NCBI RefSeq assembly: GCF_041248615.1 | Contig: NZ_CP158426.1 | Length of the DNA: 64,000 nucleotides | DNA from: Escherichia coli | GTDB taxonomy: Bacteria > Pseudomonadota > Gammaproteobacteria > Enterobacterales > Enterobacteriaceae | Direction: 5' to 3' (one strand) | Shown: piece after piece, positions 1,185-62,583 of the stretch | Layout of the letters: the number at the start of each line of letters is the position of its first letter | How positions within the stretch are numbered: the stretch's first letter is position 1 | Position numbers and translations under genes: made by a program | Notes under the pieces: model-generated | What the model saw: only the letters and a program-made list of their open reading frames with translations | What the model was told of the DNA's origin: nothing | Databases searched by the model: none

Positions 1185-1317
1185 AACCAAACGACTCGGG
1201 GTGCCCTTCTGCGTGAAGGCTGAGAAATACCCGTATCACCTGATCTGGATAATGCCAGCGTAGGGAAGTCACGGACCACCAGGTCATTGCTTCTTCACGT
1301 TATGGCAGGAGCAAACT
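1185..1317 (+). promoter_or_regulatory. TPP (thi-box) riboswitch in the thiM 5' leader
   Basis: Sequence AACCAAACGACTCGGGGTGCCCTTCTGCGTGAAGGCTGAGAAATACCCGTATCACCTGATCTGGATAATGCCAGCGTAGGGAA matches the well-known thiM TPP aptamer (CUGAGA motif, P1-P5 arrangement), directly upstream of the thiM ATG. Confidence 0.9.
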
Positions 1318-17453: not shown

Positions 17454-17480
17454 AAAAAATAAGCCCGTGTAAGGGAGATT
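17454..17480. other. 27-bp phage P2 attachment-site core (AAAAAATAAGCCCGTGTAAGGGAGATT) overlapping the cyaR 3' end; apparently unoccupied
   Basis: Exact 27-mer present in the sequence; identification as the P2 att core is from memory of the literature. Confidence 0.5.
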
Positions 17481-17540
17481 ACACAGGCTAAGGAGGTGGT
17501 TCCTGGTACAGCTAGCATTTTATGGGTTATGTTTTTCAGC
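17454..17540 (-). ncRNA. cyaR: CyaR (RyeE) CRP-dependent Hfq-binding sRNA
   Basis: Reverse complement equals GCTGAAAAACATAACCCATAAAATGCTAGCTGTACCAGGAACCACCTCCTTAGCCTGTGTAATCTCCCTTACACGGGCTTATTTTTT, including terminator hairpin and U-tail; possible TCACA CRP half-site upstream on the minus strand. Confidence 0.85.
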
Positions 17541-17624
17541 GAAACGGATGATAACCTTAATAAATGCAGCTGTATGTGATCGGTTTCTAAGAATTTTCCA
17601 TCCGGGAAAAATAATCGAAATTAA

Positions 17625-19645: not shown

Positions 19646-20368
19646 TTAAACGATGCGGCAGGCGTCGGCTTCCCAGCGGTAACCGACGCCGTAAACGGCA
19701 CGGATAAAGGACTGTTCGGCGTCGAGAGATTCCAGCTTGCGACGCAGGTTTTTAATGTGGCTGTCGATGGTGCGGTCGGTTACTACGCGGTAGTCGTCAT
19801 AAAGATGATTGAGCAATTGCTCGCGGGAGAACACTTTTCCTGGTTCATGAGAGAGCGTTTTCAGCAGACGAAATTCCGCAGGCGTCAGGTCAAGCATTTT
19901 ACCGCGCCATGAAGCCTGAAAACGACCTTCGTCGATAATCAACGGGCTTTCAGCATCCTGTTGCTGCAACTCACGCTGCGGTTTGCAACGGCGCAAAATG
20001 GTTTTGACGCGCGCTACCACTTCCCGTGGGCTGTACGGCTTGCAGATGTAGTCATCTGCACCAATCTCCAGCCCCAGCAGGCGGTCGATCTCTTCGATTT
20101 TTGCTGTCACCATCACGATCGGAATGTCAGAAAAACGACGAATTTCCCGGCACAGCGTCAGGCCATCGGTGCCAGGAAGCATAAGATCCAGCAGGATCAG
20201 ATCCGGTGGTGTCTGGCGCACATACGGCAGTACCTGATCGCCGTGGCTGATAAGCGTCGGCGCATAGCTCGCAGCACGCAGATAATCAATGAGCAACTGC
20301 CCCAGCTTCGGTTCATCTTCCACGATCAAAATACGCGGTGTGTTTTCGTCGATTGGTAACTCGGTCAT
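19646..20368 (-). CDS. baeR: Two-component response regulator (OmpR family)
   Basis: 240 aa; receiver domain ([14 protein letters not shown]...[14 protein letters not shown]) plus winged-helix output; overlaps baeS stop. Confidence 0.95.
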
Positions 20369-21768
20369 ACTTCTCTCTGTAAATCCCGTTCCAGCGGTAA
20401 CTCTACTGTAATGCTTACCCCGCCAAAAGGCGAATGGGCGGCAATAATGCGGCCATTATGTGCTTCAACAATGTTCAGGCAAATCGCCAGCCCCAGCCCG
20501 GAACCGCCGCTGGCTCGGTTGCGGGAACCTTCGGTGCGATAAAAACGTTCAAACAATTTTTGTAGCTGATCGTCACTGACGCCCGGCGCGCTGTCGGCAA
20601 AGGTCAGTCGCACCGTTTTGTCGTGCTGCTCGGCAGAGATTTTCAGGCTACCGCCGCTGTCAGTGTAGCGCAGGCTGTTTTCCAGTAAGTTATTGAATAA
20701 CTGCATTAAACGGTCGCGATCGCCAAATACGGTAATACTGTCTGGCAGGGAAAATTGCAGTTTCAGGCCACGGCTGGCGAATCTTTCGCGAAATGCGCCG
20801 CCCGCCACTTCCAGCAGTGGGATCAAATCTACCGGTGCTTTTTGATAGGCGAGAGCGCCTTCATCAGACATCGACAACTGATGGAGATCGTCAACCAGTT
20901 TGGTCAGTGTACCGACCTCCGCCTGTAAAGACGCCACCGTCTCCGGCGTGAATTTACGCACGCCATCCTGAATGGCTTCCAGTTCACCGCGCAGCACCGC
21001 TAATGGCGTACGCAGTTCGTGAGAAATATCGGCCATAAAATCGCGCCGCATTTGCTGGTTTTTCTCCAGCGTGCTGGCAAGCTGGTTGAAGTCTTGCGCC
21101 AGTTTGCCCAGTTCATCTTCACTGGTGGGTGTCACGCGGGTAGTGAAATCGCCCGCCGCCAGTTTGTGCGTGCCGTCCACCAGCCGTTTGACCGGGGCCA
21201 ACAGACCACGCGCCAGCAGAAAGGTGGCGAGTGCCGCGAGTAACGTAGCCAGGGCGACAATCAGCCAGCTGGTTTGCCGCTGTTGTTTATCGAAATTGAT
21301 ATCAGTATTGCGGGTCAGTCGCTCAATAGGGGAGGCAATCACCGCACCCACTTCCGCACCGTTGACCAGAATGGGTCGCCGTGTACCGTCAGGTGGAATC
21401 GGCGCTCGCGGACCAACCAGCACTTTGTTGTTTTGATCGACCACCCAGAACTGAGTACGCCAGCCGTGCGGCGGCATACCCGGGCCGGGTTTATCTTCCG
21501 AATTATCGTGTTCAAATGAACGCAGGATCTGAAAGACAAAGCGATCGTTGTTGCGCAGGAAGCGCCAGTTACCATGCTGCGCATACTGCTCGCCAAGCGC
21601 ATCACTTAACAGCTGTAATCGCTGTTCATTGCCGTGTTTGATGTAATCAATAAAGCCACGCTCAAAACTGATACGCACCGCCCAGTGCATACTGATCAGC
21701 AAGACAATGCAGGTGGCGAAAATCGCCAGAAACAGTTTGCCGGTAATACCGGGTCGCCAGAACTTCAT
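20365..21768 (-). CDS. baeS: Envelope-stress sensor histidine kinase
   Basis: 467 aa; HAMP, H-box ([11 protein letters not shown]) and ATPase motifs; overlaps mdtD stop. Confidence 0.95.
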
Positions 21769-30856: not shown

Positions 30857-30999
30857 GAAACGGGAAAGCCCCTCCCGAGGAAGGGGCCTTAAATAAGGAA
30901 AGGGTCATGATGAAGCTACTCATCATCGTGGTGCTCTTAGTGATTAGCTACCCAGCATACTAAGACTACCAGGGCGGGGGAAACCCCGCTCTACCCTCA
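30857..30999 (-). ncRNA. Sib antisense RNA (SibB-like), copy 1
   Basis: Minus-strand promoter TTGACA-17nt-TACTTT (31034..31006) and hairpin GCCCCT/AGGGGC followed by U-run near 30857-30887; transcript fully overlaps the ibs ORF. Ends are approximate. Confidence 0.6.
30907..30963 (+). CDS. Type I toxin Ibs (18 aa, MMKLLIIVVLLVISYPAY), IbsB-like
   Basis: Short hydrophobic ORF with SD AAGGAAAGGG upstream; matches recalled Ibs family; too short for the ORF track. Confidence 0.75.
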   Translation: MMKLLIIVVLLVISYPAY

Positions 31000-31184
31000 C
31001 TCCTGAAAGTATGCCTTCACGATAAGATTGTCAATCTGCAGGCTTTGCAGTCTGCGATCCTGCCAGCAAATATTCTTTGCGAGACGTTACGCAATAATCA
31101 CACTGGAAACTATTTTATCCGCAAGTCAGCGATAGACTGCATACAGGGCGAAAGGAGGTAAGCCGACGATTTCAGCGGGACGCT

Positions 31185-31327
31185 GAAACGGGAAAGCCCC
31201 TCCCGAGGAAGGGGCCTTAAATAAGGAAAGGGTCATGATGAAGATACTCATCATCGTGGTGCTCTTAGTGATTAGCTACCCAGCATACTAAGACTACCAG
31301 GGCGGGGGAAACCCCGCTCTACCCTCA
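31185..31327 (-). ncRNA. Sib antisense RNA, copy 2
   Basis: Same promoter and terminator as copy 1, shifted by 328 bp. Confidence 0.6.
31235..31291 (+). CDS. Type I toxin Ibs (18 aa, MMKILIIVVLLVISYPAY), IbsB-like, second copy
   Basis: Same unit as copy 1 shifted by 328 bp; one substitution (L4I). Confidence 0.75.
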   Translation: MMKILIIVVLLVISYPAY

Positions 31328-31513
31328 CTCCTGAAAGTATGCCTTCACGATAAGATTGTCAATCCGCAGGCTTTGCAGTCTGCGATCCTGCCAGCAAATA
31401 TTCTTTGCGAGTCGTTACGCAATAATCACAGAGGAAACTATTTTGGTCACGCGTTAGCGATAGACTGCATTCAGGGCGAAAGGAGGTAAGCCGACGATTT
31501 CAGCGGGACGCTG

Positions 31514-31662
31514 AAACGGGAAACCCTCTCCCGGAGAAGAGGGCTTTTAATAAGGAAAGGGTTATGATGAAGCACGTCATCATACTGGAGATACTCTTAG
31601 TGATTAGCTTCCAGGCTTACTAAGAACACCAGGGGGAGGGAGAAACCTCTCCCTAACCCTCA
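31514..31662 (-). ncRNA. Sib antisense RNA (SibA-like), copy 3
   Basis: Minus-strand promoter TTGACA-17nt-TAATTT; terminator hairpin CCCTCT/AGAGGG plus U-run. Ends are approximate. Confidence 0.55.
31564..31623 (+). CDS. Type I toxin Ibs (19 aa, MMKHVIILEILLVISFQAY), IbsA-like
   Basis: Diverged third unit; SD AAGGAAAGGG conserved. Confidence 0.7.
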   Translation: MMKHVIILEILLVISFQAY

Positions 31663-31843
31663 CTCCTGAAATTATGTCACTCCGCCCTTAGTGTCAATCG
31701 ACGGCTCTCCGTTCTTGCGAGGCGAATAGCAAAATTTTCTGCGCCGCCGGGCCTAATTCTGAAAGTTTCTTCGTTTGCTCTTATTTCATTATTGCAATCG
31801 GTATGATACCGGGCCTCAATAATTCTCTAAGAAAGGATTTCTT

Positions 31844-44708: not shown

Positions 44709-46292
44709 TCACACCTCGTACTCCATCTCGCCATCCTTACGCAGCGGTATAATCTGCACCTTCTGCACGCGATGGCTTTCCACCTGCAACGTTTTGAGCA
44801 AGTAATCCCCTACCTGAACTTCTTCGCCAGGTTTTGGAATACGCTGCAAATATTCCATCAGCAGCCCGGCAATGGTGTGATATTCGCGTTTCTCATCCAG
44901 CGGTAGCGGCACATATTGCACCAGATCTTCCAGTGGCATATGACCATTCGCCGTCCAGGAACCGTCGGCGTTTTTCTGAATATCATGGCGGGCGTCGATC
45001 TCTTCCACTTCGTTCGGTAAGTTACCGGCAATGGTTTCAGTGACGTCACTTAATGTCACAATCCCTTCCACCGAGCCAAACTCATCCACTACAAAAGCAA
45101 AGTGCGTGCGGGCATTACGGAACTGCTCCAGGGCAGGTAACAACGGCAAGGTTTCCGGGAACACCAGCGGCTGGCGAATCAACACCCGCAGGTTGAGCGG
45201 TTCGCCGCGCAGAGACTGTTGTAGCAGGTCGATAACGTGAACAACACCGAGCAAATCTTCTGCGTCATCACCGTCGGTAACCACCAACCGCGTATGCTGA
45301 TTTCGCTCCAGCAACTGGCGGATTTCTTCTTCCGGCGCGTTGAGATCGATATGCTCAATATCGTGGCGCGACGTCATAATGCTGCTGACGGTACGCTGGT
45401 TAAGATTAAGTACCCGCTCAATCATCCGCCGTTCCTGCGGATTAAAGATCTGCTGGTTACCATGATCCACCAGCATGGACGCGGTTTCGGCGTCCAGTTC
45501 CGCATCTTCTTTTTGCCCGCTAAGCAGGCGCATTACCGCTTCGGTAGTCCGCTGGCGCAGCGTCTGGTTAGCGGAAAGAAAACGTCGCCGGTTAAAGATA
45601 GCCAACTGATTGAGCGCCTCGATCATCACCGAGAAACCAATAGCAGCGTACAGGTAGCCTTTCGGAATGACGAAGCCGAAACCTTCTGCCACCAGGCTAA
45701 AGCCAATCATCAACAGGAAGCTTAAGCAGAGAATAACGATCGTCGGGTGACTGTTAACAAATTGCGTTAACGGCTTGCTGGCCATCAACATCAGGCTAAT
45801 AGCGATAACGACGGCGGCCATCATGACCAGTAAATGGTCGACCATCCCGACGGCGGTAATCACCGAGTCGAGTGAGAAGATGGCGTCCAGTACCACAATT
45901 TGTGTCACCACCCCCCAGAACTTCGCACCTTTGCGTTGTGTGGGGTTATTGCTGTCTTTCCCTTCCAGCCGTTCGTTCAGCTCCATCGTGGCTTTGAACA
46001 ACAGGAAGAAACCACCAAACAGCATGATTAAGTCGCGGGCGCTAAAGGTAAACGAGCGAAAGCTGAATAGCGGTTGTGTCAGGGTGACCAGCCAGGAGAT
46101 TGACGCCAGCAGTAACAGGCGCATTAACATCGCCAGCAGCAGCCCGGTAACCCGTGCGCGGTCGCGCTGCTTCGGCGGTAGTTTTTCGGCGAGGATGGCA
46201 ATAAAGACCAGGTTATCAATGCCGAGGACCAGTTCGATCACAATCAGCGTGATTAACCCGGCCCAGATAGACGGATCGGCAATCCATTCCAT
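44709..46292 (-). CDS. yegH: TerC-family membrane domain fused to CBS pair and CorC/HlyC transporter-associated domain
   Basis: ORF 44709..46358 trimmed to [34 protein letters not shown] (527 aa). Confidence 0.8.
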
Positions 46293-46453
46293 AGTAAGTA
46301 CAAAACCTATTCGTTGTATGACAAATGTCACAATTCGATCATGGATAAATCGGGGCAAAAATGCAATGTTGCAGCACTATTTATCTCATATTATTTGAGG
46401 TTTATAACCTCACATTATCCCTGAATTAAAAGTGGTAATAATAAAACATTATT

Positions 46454-46467
46454 TAAGAAATATCGCA
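46454..46467 (+). promoter_or_regulatory. Candidate RcsAB box upstream of wza
   Basis: TAAGAAATATCGCA loosely resembles the recalled RcsAB box consensus TaAGaatatTCctA; the match is weak. Confidence 0.25.
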
Positions 46468-46760
46468 TATGGAGACACAATATTAAATATTGTCAACCTA
46501 AAGAAACTCCTAAAAACCATATTGAATGACACTTAATATAATTCTTAAAAATAGCCAATTGCCGAATTGTTACCTTGCCTGCTATTCCGTTAGCTGTAAC
46601 ACTTCCTCCTGCATTATTGGAGAGCCAATCTTCAATTACCATAATGTCACCTTATATTCGGAAGTTAATTTCCGCAATAACCCTTTCTCATCAACGACTG
46701 TATGTTGAGAGGGTTTTAAAAATTAAGCTAAATCAGTATATTGGTAGCTAAAAAGCCAGG

Positions 46761-46772
46761 GGCGGTAGCGTG
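46761..46772 (+). promoter_or_regulatory. ops element (GGCGGTAGCGTG) within a JUMPstart sequence in the wza leader; RfaH-dependent antitermination signal
   Basis: Exact match to GGCGGTAGNNTG about 180 nt upstream of the wza start. Confidence 0.65.
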
Positions 46773-46950
46773 TCTGGATGCCTGAAAGACCAGTCTGAAT
46801 TATTCTGTCAATAGCCTGCGGATGAAATCAATTTTTTTAGGACTGATGCCAGTTAAATTTTTATTCAATTAACTGCAAGGTAAATGTGCATGGCGACATT
46901 GCTATTAATAGTGCACAGGATAATTACTCTGCCAAAGTGATAAATAAACA

Positions 46951-48090
46951 ATGATGAAATCCAAAATGAAATTGATGCCATTATTGGTGTCAGTAACCTT
47001 GATAAGCGGTTGCACAGTACTTCCGGGCAGCAATATGTCGACGATGGGCAAAGACGTCATCAAACAGCAGGACGCTGATTTCGATCTCGACAAAATGGTG
47101 AATGTTTATCCGCTGACCCCGCGCCTGATTGACCAATTACGACCACGCCCCAACGTAGCGCGCCCCAATATGACGCTGGAAAGTGAGATCGCGAATTACC
47201 AGTATCGCGTCGGGCCGGGGGACGTTCTTAATGTCACCGTCTGGGATCACCCGGAACTCACCACGCCAGCCGGTCAGTACCGCAGCTCCAGCGACACCGG
47301 CAACTGGGTACAGCCTGACGGCACCATGTTCTACCCGTATATCGGCAAAGTTCTCGTGGTGGGGAAAACGCTCGCTGAAATCCGCAGTGATATTACCGGG
47401 CGCTTAGCGACGTACATCGCTGACCCGCAGGTGGACGTTAATATCGCCGCCTTCCGCTCGCAAAAAGCCTATATCTCCGGCCAGGTGAATAAATCCGGCC
47501 AACAGGCGATCACCAACGTGCCACTGACCATTCTCGATGCCATCAACGCCGCAGGTGGCCTGACCGACACCGCTGACTGGCGCAACGTGGTGCTAACACA
47601 CAATGGTCGTGAAGAGCGCATTTCTTTGCAGGCGCTGATGCAAAACGGCGACCTCAATCAGAACCGACTGCTTTACCCCGGCGATATTCTCTACGTGCCG
47701 CGTAATGATGATCTGAAAGTGTTTGTGATGGGTGAAGTGAAGAAACAGAGCACCCTGAAAATGGACTTTAGCGGCATGACCCTGACTGAAGCCCTGGGTA
47801 ATGCTGAAGGCATCGACATGACCACCTCCAACGCCAGCGGCATCTTTGTCATTCGTCCGCTGAAAGGCGAGGGCGGGCGTAACGGCAAGATTGCCAATAT
47901 CTATCAGCTGGATATGTCCGATGCGACGTCGCTGGTGATGGCGACAGAATTCCGCCTACAACCTTATGACGTGGTGTATGTCACCACCGCCCCGGTTTCC
48001 CGCTGGAACCGTCTGATCAATCAGTTGCTGCCAACTATTAGCGGTGTCCGTTACATGACGGATACAGCCAGCGACATTCATAACTGGTAA
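46951..48090 (+). CDS. wza: Colanic acid export outer-membrane lipoprotein (OPX family)
   Basis: 379 aa [23 protein letters not shown].... Confidence 0.95.
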
Positions 48091-59674: not shown

Positions 59675-61111
59675 ATGGCGCAGTCGAAACTCTATCCAGT
59701 TGTGATGGCAGGTGGCTCCGGTAGCCGCTTATGGCCGCTTTCCCGCGTACTTTACCCCAAGCAGTTTTTATGCCTGAAAGGCGATCTCACCATGCTGCAA
59801 ACCACCATCTGCCGCCTGAACGGCGTGGAGTGCGAAAGCCCGGTGGTGATTTGCAATGAGCAGCACCGCTTTATTGTCGCGGAACAGCTGCGTCAACTGA
59901 ACAAACTCACCGAGAATATTATTCTCGAACCGGCAGGGCGTAACACTGCACCTGCCATTGCACTGGCGGCGCTGGCGGCAAAACGTCATAGCCCGGAGAG
60001 CGACCCATTAATGCTGGTGCTGGCGGCGGATCATGTGATTGCCGATGAAGACGCTTTTCGCACCGCCGTGCGTAATGCTATGCCATATGCCGAAGCGGGC
60101 AAGCTGGTGACCTTCGGCATTGTGCCGGATCTACCAGAAACCGGTTATGGCTATATTCGTCGCGGTGAAGTGTCTGCGGGTGAGCAGGATACGGTGGCCT
60201 TTGAAGTGGCGCAGTTTGTCGAAAAACCAAATCTGGAAACCGCTCAGGCCTATGTGGCAAGCGGCGAATATTACTGGAACAGCGGTATGTTCCTGTTCCG
60301 CGCCGGACGCTATCTCGAAGAACTGAAAAAATATCGCCCGGATATTCTCGACGCCTGTGAAAAAGCGATGAGCGCCGTCGATCCGGATCTCGATTTTATT
60401 CGCGTGGATGAAGAAGCGTTTCTGGCCTGCCCGGAAGAGTCGGTGGATTACGCGGTCATGGAACGTACGGCAGATGCCGTTGTGGTGCCGATGGATGCGG
60501 GCTGGAGCGATGTCGGTTCCTGGTCTTCATTATGGGAGATCAGCGCCCACACCGCCGAGGGCAACGTTTGCCACGGCGATGTGATTAATCACAAAACTGA
60601 AAACAGCTATGTGTATGCCGAATCTGGCCTGGTCACCACCGTCGGGGTGAAAGATTTGGTGGTAGTGCAGACCAAAGATGCGGTGCTGATTGCCGACCGT
60701 AACGCGGTGCAGGATGTGAAAAAAGTGGTCGAGCAGATCAAAGCCGATGGTCGCCATGAGCATCGGGTGCATCGCGAAGTGTATCGCCCGTGGGGCAAAT
60801 ATGACTCTATCGACGCGGGCGACCGCTACCAGGTGAAACGCATCACCGTGAAACCGGGCGAAGGTTTGTCGGTACAGATGCATCATCACCGCGCGGAACA
60901 CTGGGTGGTTGTCGCGGGAACGGCAAAAGTCACTATCGACGGTGATATCAAACTGCTTGGTGAAAACGAGTCCATTTATATTCCGCTGGGGGCGACGCAT
61001 TGCCTGGAAAACCCGGGGAAAATTCCGCTCGATTTAATTGAAGTGCGCTCCGGCTCTTATCTCGAAGAGGATGATGTGGTGCGCTTCGCGGATCGCTACG
61101 GACGGGTGTAG
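59675..61111 (+). CDS. cpsB: Mannose-1-phosphate guanylyltransferase
   Basis: 478 aa [24 protein letters not shown].... Confidence 0.95.
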
Positions 61112-61212
61112 CAGTTGAATAATCAACCGGATTAATTCTCCGGTAAATAACGACAAAAACAAAATTGGCCGTTTCGGTCAGGGCCAACTATTGCCTGAAA
61201 AAGGGTAACGAT

Positions 61213-62583
61213 ATGAAAAAATTAACCTGCTTTAAAGCCTATGATATTCGCGGGAAATTAGGCGAAGAACTGAATGAAGATATCGCCTGGCGCATTGGTC
61301 GCGCCTATGGCGAATTTCTCAAACCGAAAACCATTGTGTTAGGTGGTGATGCCCGCCTCACCAGCGAAACCTTAAAACTGGCGCTGGCGAAAGGTTTACA
61401 GGATGCGGGCGTCGATGTGCTGGATATCGGCATGTCCGGCACCGAAGAGATCTATTTCGCCACGTTCCATCTCGGCGTGGATGGCGGCATCGAAGTTACC
61501 GCCAGCCATAACCCGATGGATTACAACGGCATGAAACTGGTGCGCGAAGGGGCTCACCCGATCAGCGGTGATACCGGACTGCGCGATGTCCAGCGTCTGG
61601 CAGAAGCCAACGACTTCCCTCCCGTTGATGAAACCAAACGCGGTCGCTATCAGCAAATCAATCTGCGTGACGCTTACGTTGATCACCTGTTCGGTTATAT
61701 CAACGTCAAAAACCTCACGTCGCTCAAGCTGGTGATCAACTCCGGGAACGGCGCGGCGGGTCCGGTGGTGGACGCCATTGAAGCCCGCTTTAAAGCCCTC
61801 GGCGCACCGGTGGAATTAATCAAAGTACACAACACGCCGGACGGCAATTTCCCCAACGGTATTCCTAACCCGCTACTGCCGGAATGCCGCGACGACACCC
61901 GCAATGCGGTCATCAAACACGGCGCGGATATGGGCATTGCCTTTGATGGCGATTTTGACCGCTGTTTCCTGTTTGACGAAAAAGGGCAGTTTATCGAGGG
62001 CTACTACATTGTCGGCCTGCTGGCAGAAGCGTTCCTCGAAAAAAATCCCGGCGCGAAGATCATCCACGATCCACGTCTCTCCTGGAACACCGTTGATGTG
62101 GTGACTGCCGCAGGCGGCACCCCGGTAATGTCGAAAACCGGACACGCCTTTATTAAAGAACGGATGCGCAAGGAAGACGCCATCTACGGTGGCGAAATGA
62201 GCGCCCACCATTACTTCCGTGATTTTGCCTACTGCGACAGCGGCATGATCCCGTGGCTGCTGGTCGCCGAACTGGTGTGCCTGAAAGGGAAAACGCTGGG
62301 CGAACTGGTGCGCGACCGGATGGCAGCGTTTCCGGCAAGCGGTGAGATCAACAGCAAACTGGCGCAACCCGTTGAGGCAATTAATCGCGTCGAACAGCAT
62401 TTTAGCCGTGAGGCGCTGGCGGTGGATCGCACCGATGGCATCAGTATGACCTTTGCCGACTGGCGCTTTAACCTGCGCTCCTCCAACACCGAACCGGTGG
62501 TGCGGTTGAATGTGGAATCACGCGGTGATGTGCCGCTGATGGAAGCGCGAACGCGAACTCTGCTGACGTTGCTGAACGAGTAA
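61213..62583 (+). CDS. cpsG: Phosphomannomutase
   Basis: ORF 61165..62583 trimmed to [14 protein letters not shown] (456 aa); active-site TASHNP motif. Confidence 0.9.

Follow-up and report, generated by a model that had tools for sequence, protein, structure and literature searches.

Conserved elements in the regulatory region of the Escherichia coli colanic acid (wza–wca) operon

The 64-kb stretch of Escherichia coli chromosome analysed here (the window) includes the first genes of the colanic acid operon. Our subject is the 658-bp gap between yegH and wza, 46293-46950. Gene annotation was taken from RefSeq record NZ_LT599825, which is 100% identical over the query. The gene order is asmA (+), yegH (-), then wza, wzb and wzc (+), as it also is in K-12, and the divergence of yegH (minus) from wza-wzb-wzc (plus) identifies the gap as the upstream region of the colanic acid operon. 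The genes on either side are as follows.

44709-46292, minus strand: yegH, the divergent neighbour, encoding a TerC family membrane protein, with its start codon at 46292 (RefSeq; Pfam TerC, CBS and CorC_HlyC)
46951-48090, plus strand: wza, the first gene of the colanic acid operon (annotation; Pfam Poly_export, SLBB and Wza_C)

The gap is AT-rich, with a GC content of 0.29-0.40 compared with about 0.50-0.60 in the flanks, and 4818 of the 5426 complete E. coli genomes carry it at a coverage of at least 80%, with an identity of 95-100% in most cases. A comparison with K-12, called for in an earlier reading of the sequence alone, shows the functional blocks to be the same base for base. K-12 differs from the window at 15 positions, all in variable segments, and is identical in Box A, Box B, the P1 and P2 candidates, the JUMPstart/ops element and the interval from ops to the wza ATG, each of which is described below.

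For a wider comparison, 80 loci with close Wza relatives were fetched from other species and genera, and the 700 nt upstream were aligned for 79 of them. The sample takes in Escherichia, Citrobacter, Salmonella, Enterobacter, Lelliottia, Kosakonia, Phytobacter, Franconibacter, Atlantibacter, Trabulsiella, Cedecea, Buttiauxella and others. The 79 loci show sharply conserved blocks alternating with unalignable DNA, and the suggestion that the region could hide additional small elements is borne out by several further conserved blocks in this alignment. One of them lies next to yegH.

46319-46368, no strand assigned: yegH-proximal conserved block, with the palindrome TGACAAATGTCA at 46319-46330 (column identity 70-99% across the 79 loci)

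This block is possibly the yegH promoter, or an operator. Its position bears on the description of the region, in the sequence-only reading, as a leader of about 590 bp that begins at 46359. The AT-rich gap is there, but 46359 falls in yegH-proximal conserved DNA, so that the label of leader does not suit the whole. Going by the predicted start sites, some 340-400 nt would be transcribed, rather than 590, and the first 190-250 bp or so would be promoter and operator DNA.

The most readily recognised features of the gap lie well downstream, in the putative transcribed leader.

46734-46772, plus strand: JUMPstart element (Rfam RF01707), comprising the hairpin UUGGU/GCCAG (46742-46759) and then GGGCGGUAGCGUG
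46761-46772, plus strand: ops (operon polarity suppressor), GGCGGTAGCGTG, an exact match in the non-template strand, ending well short of wza with 190 nt between its start and the ATG

The exact ops was already reported from the sequence alone, with these coordinates, and it is confirmed on the plus strand exactly there. The 12-nt ops sequence, GGCGGTAGnnTG, lies on the coding-sense strand of wza. It is the sole exact copy within the 64-kb window, where there is one copy with a single mismatch, at 20644-20655 on the minus strand, within a 467-aa open reading frame. The covariance model for RF01707, whose gathering score is 35, gives 57.2 bits here (E = 1.7e-10 over the 64 kb), and the match is complete, covering model positions 1-38 of 38 with ops as its 3' end. 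The element is sense-oriented in the 5' leader of a polysaccharide cluster, 179 nt upstream of wza, with both candidate start sites (~46548 and ~46611, predicted from sequence) upstream of ops; by covariance model and by position alike, the earlier call of a JUMPstart/ops element was correct. JUMPstart also scores above threshold in 19 of the 20 orthologous loci tested, and GGCGGTAG is found at -186 to -199 from the ATG in 74 of the 79 aligned loci. One further locus has it at -308, as the result of a 118-nt insertion. Pseudescherichia vulneris and two related assemblies have lost a 33-nt segment with the hairpin and ops and have kept the promoter blocks and the initiation region; since the rest of the region survives in this lineage without JUMPstart, ops is not indispensable everywhere.

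Published data place RfaH at this site. For strain CFT073, Dataset S2 of PMC9765446 lists wza with GGCGGTAGCGTG at -190, in the untranslated region, with an RfaH ChIP signal. In the same study RfaH was associated with wza-wcaM in an hns stpA double mutant, and only there; the wza promoter was bound by H-NS and silent in rich medium, and a sigma70 peak appeared only without H-NS. Transcription of wca is described as subject to JUMPstart-RfaH antitermination and activated by RcsA and RcsB (PMC9976346, citing Stout 1996 and Hobbs & Reeves 1994), and for E. coli K92 PMC9765446 cites a report that RfaH controls the synthesis of colanic acid (Navasa 2014). RfaH itself cuts pausing, blocks Rho through the exclusion of NusG, and brings in ribosomes via S10 (PMC5449661).

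Upstream of the leader, the alignment picks out two boxes that resemble binding sites of the Rcs regulators.

46454-46467, plus strand: Box A, candidate RcsAB box TAAGAAATATCGCA, the site proposed in the sequence-only reading, with six of six invariant consensus positions and the same sequence in K-12
46490-46516, plus strand: TTGTCAAC motif, Box B and an A-tract (about 90-100% column identity)
46499-46512, plus strand: Box B, proximal RcsB-like box TAAAGAAACTCCTA, its right half ATCCTAAAA nearly invariant and its left half degenerate

Box A agrees with the RcsAB consensus TaAGaatatTCctA (quoted as TaAGaa/tatTCctA in PMC3950696 and PMC4325325) at 9 of 14 positions, including all six capitals, and it is the only site in the gap that satisfies every invariant position. 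A consensus search that allowed three mismatches did not retrieve Box A, because the match is only 9 of 14; the five mismatches all fall at weakly conserved positions. It also fits the box of the RcsB homodimer, the pseudopalindromic 14-mer TN(G/A)GAN4TC(T/C)NA (PMC7913699), with one mismatch. When any base is allowed at position 12 of the RcsB pattern, shuffling the gap yields an expectation of 0.19 occurrences (P ~0.13), so that the match alone is not significant. In 49 of the 79 orthologous loci, however, this relaxed pattern precedes Box B by 44-46 bp, and Box A forms an island of 60-90% identity amid variable DNA. Most genera have TAGGAAATATCGCA or TAGGATATATCGCA here, and Atlantibacter has TGAGGATATTCCTA, which is near the consensus. 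It is this conservation at fixed spacing, not sequence statistics, that leads us to take Box A as probably a real operator. It is probably also the published RcsAB box of the wza promoter, where Wehland & Bernhard 2000, according to papers that cite it (e.g. PMC3950696), reported binding of the RcsA-RcsB heterodimer and loss of activation on mutation. The earlier description of 46454-46467 as weakly RcsAB-like thus probably had the right site, but “weak” undersells a sequence held at fixed spacing across genera.

Box B is better conserved than Box A and belongs to the best conserved block of the promoter region, TTGTCAAYA-TAAAGAAAATCCTAAAA (46490-46516); the core wTCC[TG]AAA is present in 69 of 79 loci, and the box adjoins the TATAAT of P1. 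Its fit to the RcsB box depends on the species. In E. coli, only the right half fits in register 0; shifted by one base, the site fits the weaker variant ...N4(A/C)CTNA except for the first T, and an A replaces the G at invariant position 4. Elsewhere, the site takes the forms TGAGGCTAATCCTA, TCAGGTTAATCCTA or TAAGTTAATTCCTA in some genera; variants like the first two approach the RcsB box of PMC7913699, and versions in several genera are near-perfect. The right half is of the ATCCTA type, the half that RcsB may bind according to PMC3950696.

Two further conserved blocks follow Box B, and each has features of a promoter.

46534-46550, plus strand: P1, candidate promoter with -10 element TAATATAAT, a perfect TATAAT at 46537-46542 and no -35 hexamer
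46567-46613, plus strand: P2 or early-leader block, CCTTGCCTG-N7-TTAGCTGYAACAATTCTTCCAGCAT, 41 bp beyond the P1 block

The P1 block, CTTAATAT(A/T)AATCTTAAAA, starts 33-34 bp downstream of the start of Box B, and the conserved CTTAATATTAATCTTAAAA block is present in 62 of 79 loci at this fixed distance of 33-34 bp. Transcription from P1 is predicted to start at about 46547-46550, which would centre Box B near -42 and Box A near -88. In the second block a -35-like element, TTGCCT (46576-81), is followed after 17 bp by a candidate extended -10, TGT-AACACT (46599-604), with a predicted start at about 46611. CTTGYC is found in 77 of the 79 loci and TGnAACAAT in 75, and the spacer is exactly 17 bp in all 74 loci that have both. 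On its sequence, the block at 46567-46613 could be either a second sigma70 promoter, P2, or a C-rich, G-poor, rut-like stretch making up the first 60 nt of the P1 transcript. The latter reading is prompted by its composition, which is C-rich and G-poor as at Rho loading sites; the C/G ratio is about 2 over 46540-46708 and weaker in the orthologues (median 1.36). Inspection of the block for hairpin covariation gave nothing consistent, and a candidate GTTAC/GTAAC stem in the early leader is not maintained. A generic promoter scan of the region was uninformative, returning two matches where 3.7 were expected, both in non-conserved DNA. RegulonDB reportedly also lists a sigma-E-type wza promoter (PMC9764084); inspection of the gap by eye turned up no convincing match to GGAACTT-N16-TCAAA.

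Conservation resumes beyond ops and continues to the start of wza.

46798-46880, plus strand: conserved post-ops leader blocks ATTATTCTGTCAATAGCC, TTTTTAGGACTGATGCCAGTTA and ATTAACTGCA (column identity 80-100%)
46822-46872, plus strand: 16-codon open reading frame MKSIFLGLMPVKFLFN, starting 50 nt after ops, its reality uncertain
46912-46950, plus strand: wza translation-initiation region, nearly invariant and lacking a canonical Shine-Dalgarno sequence

Across genera, identity is 90-100% in the 40 nt that lead up to the ATG, compared with a level of about 0.69 at the synonymous sites of wza, and by this measure the leader downstream of ops is conserved beyond the synonymous-site level. The only semblance of a ribosome-binding site is GUGAU at 46937-41, 9 nt before the AUG; starts poor in Shine-Dalgarno sequence are reported for RfaH-dependent genes. 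The conservation is at the level of primary sequence and not of RNA structure, since the leader shows no covariation, no other Rfam match and no terminator. RNAalifold, run on 20 species from ops to 40 nt past the ATG, gave a covariation term of -0.7 kcal/mol with compensatory change in 2 of 25 predicted pairs, and, apart from the JUMPstart hairpin, predicted no more than a few short stems of invariant sequence. At relaxed thresholds, Rfam returned JUMPstart alone for 46250-47050, the next matches being chance-like (E = 0.21 and 2.9), and a terminator scan of the leader found no intrinsic terminator or attenuator. A bulged hairpin at 46681-46713 with a UUUU run (to 46717) is specific to E. coli, has its U-run broken in K-12 and is not conserved in other genera; folding species by species revealed no terminator shared within the variable part of the leader.

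Two other accounts of this part of the sequence were tried and rejected. The post-ops leader might have been a degenerate tandem duplicate of the wza start, with which it shares ATGAAATC and TGATGCCA, but the two align locally no better than shuffled sequences do (P = 0.34 for the window and 0.08-0.9 for eight other species). Nor is there exceptional synonymous constraint at the 5' end of wza, where codons 1-15 score 0.81, compared with about 0.69 for the gene, since further stretches of it attain 0.82-0.86.

We conclude with high confidence that the gap serves as the regulatory region of the colanic acid (wza-wca) operon of E. coli, with Rcs-activated initiation and RfaH recruitment at ops. 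The feature is already known, the promoter and leader of this operon having been characterised before. Among the exopolysaccharides of E. coli under Rcs control, colanic acid is the main one, and its operon is a model for the switching-on of horizontally acquired, H-NS-silenced, Rho-sensitive gene clusters, by counter-silencing through an activator combined with RfaH.

Which of the two promoter-like blocks is the core promoter? It is possible, though on balance doubtful, that P2 fills this role, with the P1 block an upstream AT-rich element, or that the two work in tandem. With P2 as the core promoter, the AT-rich element would be the TAATATAAT block, and the Rcs-like boxes, centred at about -105 and -150, would act from far upstream. 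The invariant 17-bp spacer (74 of 74) argues for P2, as does the pattern of a conserved block, a variable spacer and a conserved block running to a purine, which is promoter-like. The distance to the boxes is no objection, since at rcsA the RcsAB boxes lie about 170 bp upstream of the start (PMC11879457), and RegulonDB is reported to list two wza promoters (PMC9764084). On the other hand, the E. coli -10 element of P2, AACACT, is poor, whereas P1 has a perfect TATAAT and Box B abuts the -35 position of P1. RcsB boxes abut the -35 position at RcsB-only promoters. Neither candidate was flagged by the generic promoter scan. For the same stretch of DNA, the PGAP annotation offers a quite different explanation of the conservation, a 49-aa hypothetical protein encoded on the minus strand at 46493-46642, to which we give practically no credence. 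PGAP calls this frame in many E. coli genomes, but only 2 of 80 aligned sequences keep it intact; it is already interrupted in another E. coli, the K-12 annotation lacks it, and it has no Pfam match. It overlaps Box B and both promoter candidates, which account for the conservation, and we regard it as spurious.

For the leader, two readings compete with the one that we favour. In the more radical of them, the ops/JUMPstart match is a relic or has arisen by chance, and the colanic acid genes are expressed independently of RfaH. RfaH was indeed first mapped to two K-12 operons, neither of them that of colanic acid (PMC9765446), and one lineage has deleted JUMPstart. A family match at E = 1.7e-10, with the position and sequence of ops kept in 74 of 79 species, makes this reading very improbable, however, and an RfaH ChIP signal is reported at the site itself, besides the K92 study cited in PMC9765446. 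The other reading explains the conservation beyond ops by a translated upstream frame of 16-18 codons, perhaps read by ribosomes recruited through RfaH and serving in coupling or in the tuning of wza. Of 74 anchored loci, 54 have an ATG-initiated frame that spans the conserved core and is 14 aa or longer, and 69 have one when the minimum is lowered to 8 aa; for the remaining two frames the numbers are 0 and 4-6. The frame survives indels (16 or 18 codons), loss of the internal ATG is paired with presence of the upstream ATG and vice versa, and AGGA stands 3 nt before the internal ATG. Its conserved core reads FLGL[M/I]PV[I/K]F. Nevertheless, we think that translation is unlikely to be the cause of the conservation. 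Entropy at the three codon positions is 0.74, 0.56 and 0.72, with no relaxation at the third, and the core codons are invariant at synonymous sites, which implies a constraint on nucleotides; moreover, the variable residues are not conserved as protein, the first ATG has no Shine-Dalgarno sequence before it, and Trabulsiella, Franconibacter and Silvania confinis lack the frame. Constraint on the nucleotides may have kept the frame open incidentally.

The mechanism that we favour, with RfaH acting at ops on transcripts that start at an Rcs-activated promoter, draws its elements, their family membership, their conservation and their fixed spacing across about 80 species from the present comparison, and RfaH and H-NS occupancy and the general workings of RfaH and Rcs from the literature; the start site, a role for Box B and the loading of Rho onto the early, C-rich part of the leader are what we infer. 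The AT-rich DNA would normally be silenced by H-NS. Under envelope stress, phosphorylated RcsB with RcsA would bind the RcsAB box at 46454-46467, RcsB would probably also occupy the proximal box at 46499-46512, and the two boxes would jointly activate the -35-less promoter with its -10 TATAAT at 46537-46542. Some 400 nt of leader would then be transcribed. At ops (46761-46772) RNA polymerase would pause, exposing the non-template ops strand, on which RfaH loads. Staying with the polymerase, RfaH would suppress pausing and keep NusG off, so blocking termination by Rho, and its contact with S10 would aid translation from the Shine-Dalgarno-poor wza start. The outcome would be expression of the whole operon of more than 20 kb.

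How does this arrangement compare with other systems? The leaders of other ops-containing operons (waaQ, O-antigen rfb/wzx, hlyCABD, kps and tra) share with wza the 12-nt ops in the non-template strand and a long untranslated leader; they, too, have AT-rich, H-NS-bound DNA and a weak or absent Shine-Dalgarno sequence on the first gene. In CFT073, rfaQ, wzx, tssH and c4518 carry the identical ops 12-mer (PMC9765446). What sets wza apart from these leaders is that initiation itself is silenced and needs the Rcs phosphorelay, that the distance from ops to the ATG (190 nt) stays nearly the same across genera, and that the intervening sequence is unusually conserved. The rcsA promoter likewise has two RcsAB boxes in curved, H-NS-bound, AT-rich DNA (PMC11879457), and Box A fits the same consensus. 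Compared with RcsB-only promoters such as rprA and osmC, Box B is alike in position; with its degenerate left half, it is a candidate box. The RcsAB sites of Erwinia amylovora amsG and Pantoea stewartii cpsA are situated some 530-555 bp ahead of the start codon of the first gene and are followed by a long leader. The wza region, with Box A at -497 to -484, resembles them in layout.

Confirmation of the individual elements adds nothing new, and it is the comparative map that supplies testable hypotheses, which bear on RcsA-independent activation and on the RfaH-mediated coupling of ribosomes to genes without a Shine-Dalgarno sequence. At its most elaborate, the map could be read as a rigid composite, in which Box A and Box B, 45 bp apart, would serve as separate RcsA-dependent and RcsA-independent inputs to two promoters at fixed spacing, with a post-ops element that is either a translated frame or a protein- or RNA-binding site. 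We consider this a long shot. If it held, the post-ops element could be the first ribosome-loading point for RfaH-modified polymerase, and this would explain why the 190 nt between ops and wza are conserved beyond the level of synonymous sites.

Finally, there is a further box upstream of Box A, which forms a good RcsB-type palindrome in Enterobacter, Lelliottia, Trabulsiella and others but not in E. coli.

46378-46391, plus strand: Box C, RcsB-like TGAGATTTCTCTTA in other genera and degenerate CACTATTTATCTCA in E. coli

Relative to the ATG, Enterobacter, Lelliottia, Trabulsiella, Franconibacter and others have their matches to the Box C pattern between about -605 and -657.

Three related assemblies provide a natural variant of the colanic acid operon that lacks ops. 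In the orthologous wza loci of Pseudescherichia vulneris (L040), Escherichia sp. ESNIH1 (L041) and the MAG UBA7338 (L037), both the JUMPstart hairpin and ops are absent, a 33-nt segment being missing ~150-190 nt before wza, and GGCGGTAG was not found anywhere across the three leaders. All three assemblies do retain the promoter blocks and Rcs boxes, along with the invariant initiation region. Changes of other kinds are seen in two Citrobacter loci. That of Citrobacter sp. On2M (L005) has a G-to-A change within ops (GACGGTAGCGTG), and its JUMPstart, at 2285-2324, scores 41.8 bits, slightly over the cut-off. In Citrobacter amalonaticus (L042) a 118-nt insertion (TATAGCCAAAATAATTCGGGTTACGGG...GACGGGTA), located ~60-180 nt before wza, separates two conserved leader blocks and leaves ops shifted to -308; this putative element has the look of a small repeat or mobile element.

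Within the E. coli yegH-wza gap, the following additional features were located.

46319-46330: TGTCAA copy 1, a palindrome (TGACAAATGTCA) directly upstream of yegH
46378-46391: third RcsB-like box, adjoining the conserved yegH-proximal block
46490-46497: TGTCAA copy 2 (TTGTCAAC), adjoining Box B, the RcsB-like box at 46499-46512
46493-46642, minus strand: 49-aa hypothetical protein WP_024044812.1 (RefSeq/PGAP annotation)
46681-46717, plus strand: bulged hairpin CCCTTTCTCATCAAC...GTTGAGAGGG followed by TTTTAAAAA, directly upstream of JUMPstart
46806-46815: TGTCAA copy 3 (CTGTCAATAG), downstream of ops
46822-46872, plus strand: 16-codon ORF (MKSIFLGLMPVKFLFN), starting 50 nt past ops

Is the small ORF downstream of ops a gene? 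Its reading frame is maintained in most genera, indels included, and the third positions of its core codons are invariant. It may be either a genuine upstream ORF or a side effect of a conserved nucleotide element. The hairpin that precedes JUMPstart resembles a terminator; other genera do not conserve it, and in the K-12 counterpart the T-run is broken (GGGTGTGAAAAA).

The 49-aa protein is annotated across many E. coli genomes, K-12 being without the annotation. Since its open frame survives in only two of the 80 aligned orthologous regions, and a Pfam search with the protein gave no matches, we reject it as a real gene; the call, which overlies the wza promoter, is almost certainly spurious.

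The third RcsB-like box lies at approximately -605 to -657 relative to the wza ATG in several orthologous loci (L030, L036, L055, L066, L014, L078 and others). In Enterobacter, Lelliottia, Trabulsiella and Franconibacter the box forms a good palindrome (TGAGATTTCTCTTA), and the E. coli version is degenerate (CACTATTTATCTCA). In other genera it could place yegH under Rcs control or belong to a more extended Rcs array.

All three copies of the TGTCAA hexamer in the gap fall within conserved blocks, and the repeats may represent a putative regulator site or a coincidence. The conserved -10 block of the candidate wza promoter P1, at 46532-46549, reads CTTAAT-N6-CTTAAA (CTTAATATTAATCTTAAAA in most genera). 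The PmrA/BasR box has the form CTTAAT-N5-CTTAAT; the two are thus alike, but the spacer is one base longer in the -10 block. An influence of BasSR on the wza promoter has been suggested from expression data (PMC2478693).

Elsewhere in the window, an ops-like site and several strong Rfam matches were found.

1187-1283, plus strand: TPP riboswitch
17457-17542, minus strand: CyaR sRNA
20644-20655, minus strand: ops-like 12-mer with one mismatch (GGCGGTAGCCTG), within a 467-aa ORF (20365-21768, minus strand)
30892-31034, 31220-31362 and 31549-31697, minus strand: three tandem Sib antitoxin RNAs
61159-61208, plus strand: algC RNA motif RF02929 (78 bits, E = 1e-15)

In published ChIP, RfaH was not detected at intragenic ops-like sites. 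The RF02929 match, farther down the strand that carries wza, is located where a 478-aa ORF (59675-61111) is separated by a short gap from the ORF that follows it (61165-62583); from their position, the two ORFs probably correspond to manC/cpsB- and manB/cpsG-type genes in the wza operon.
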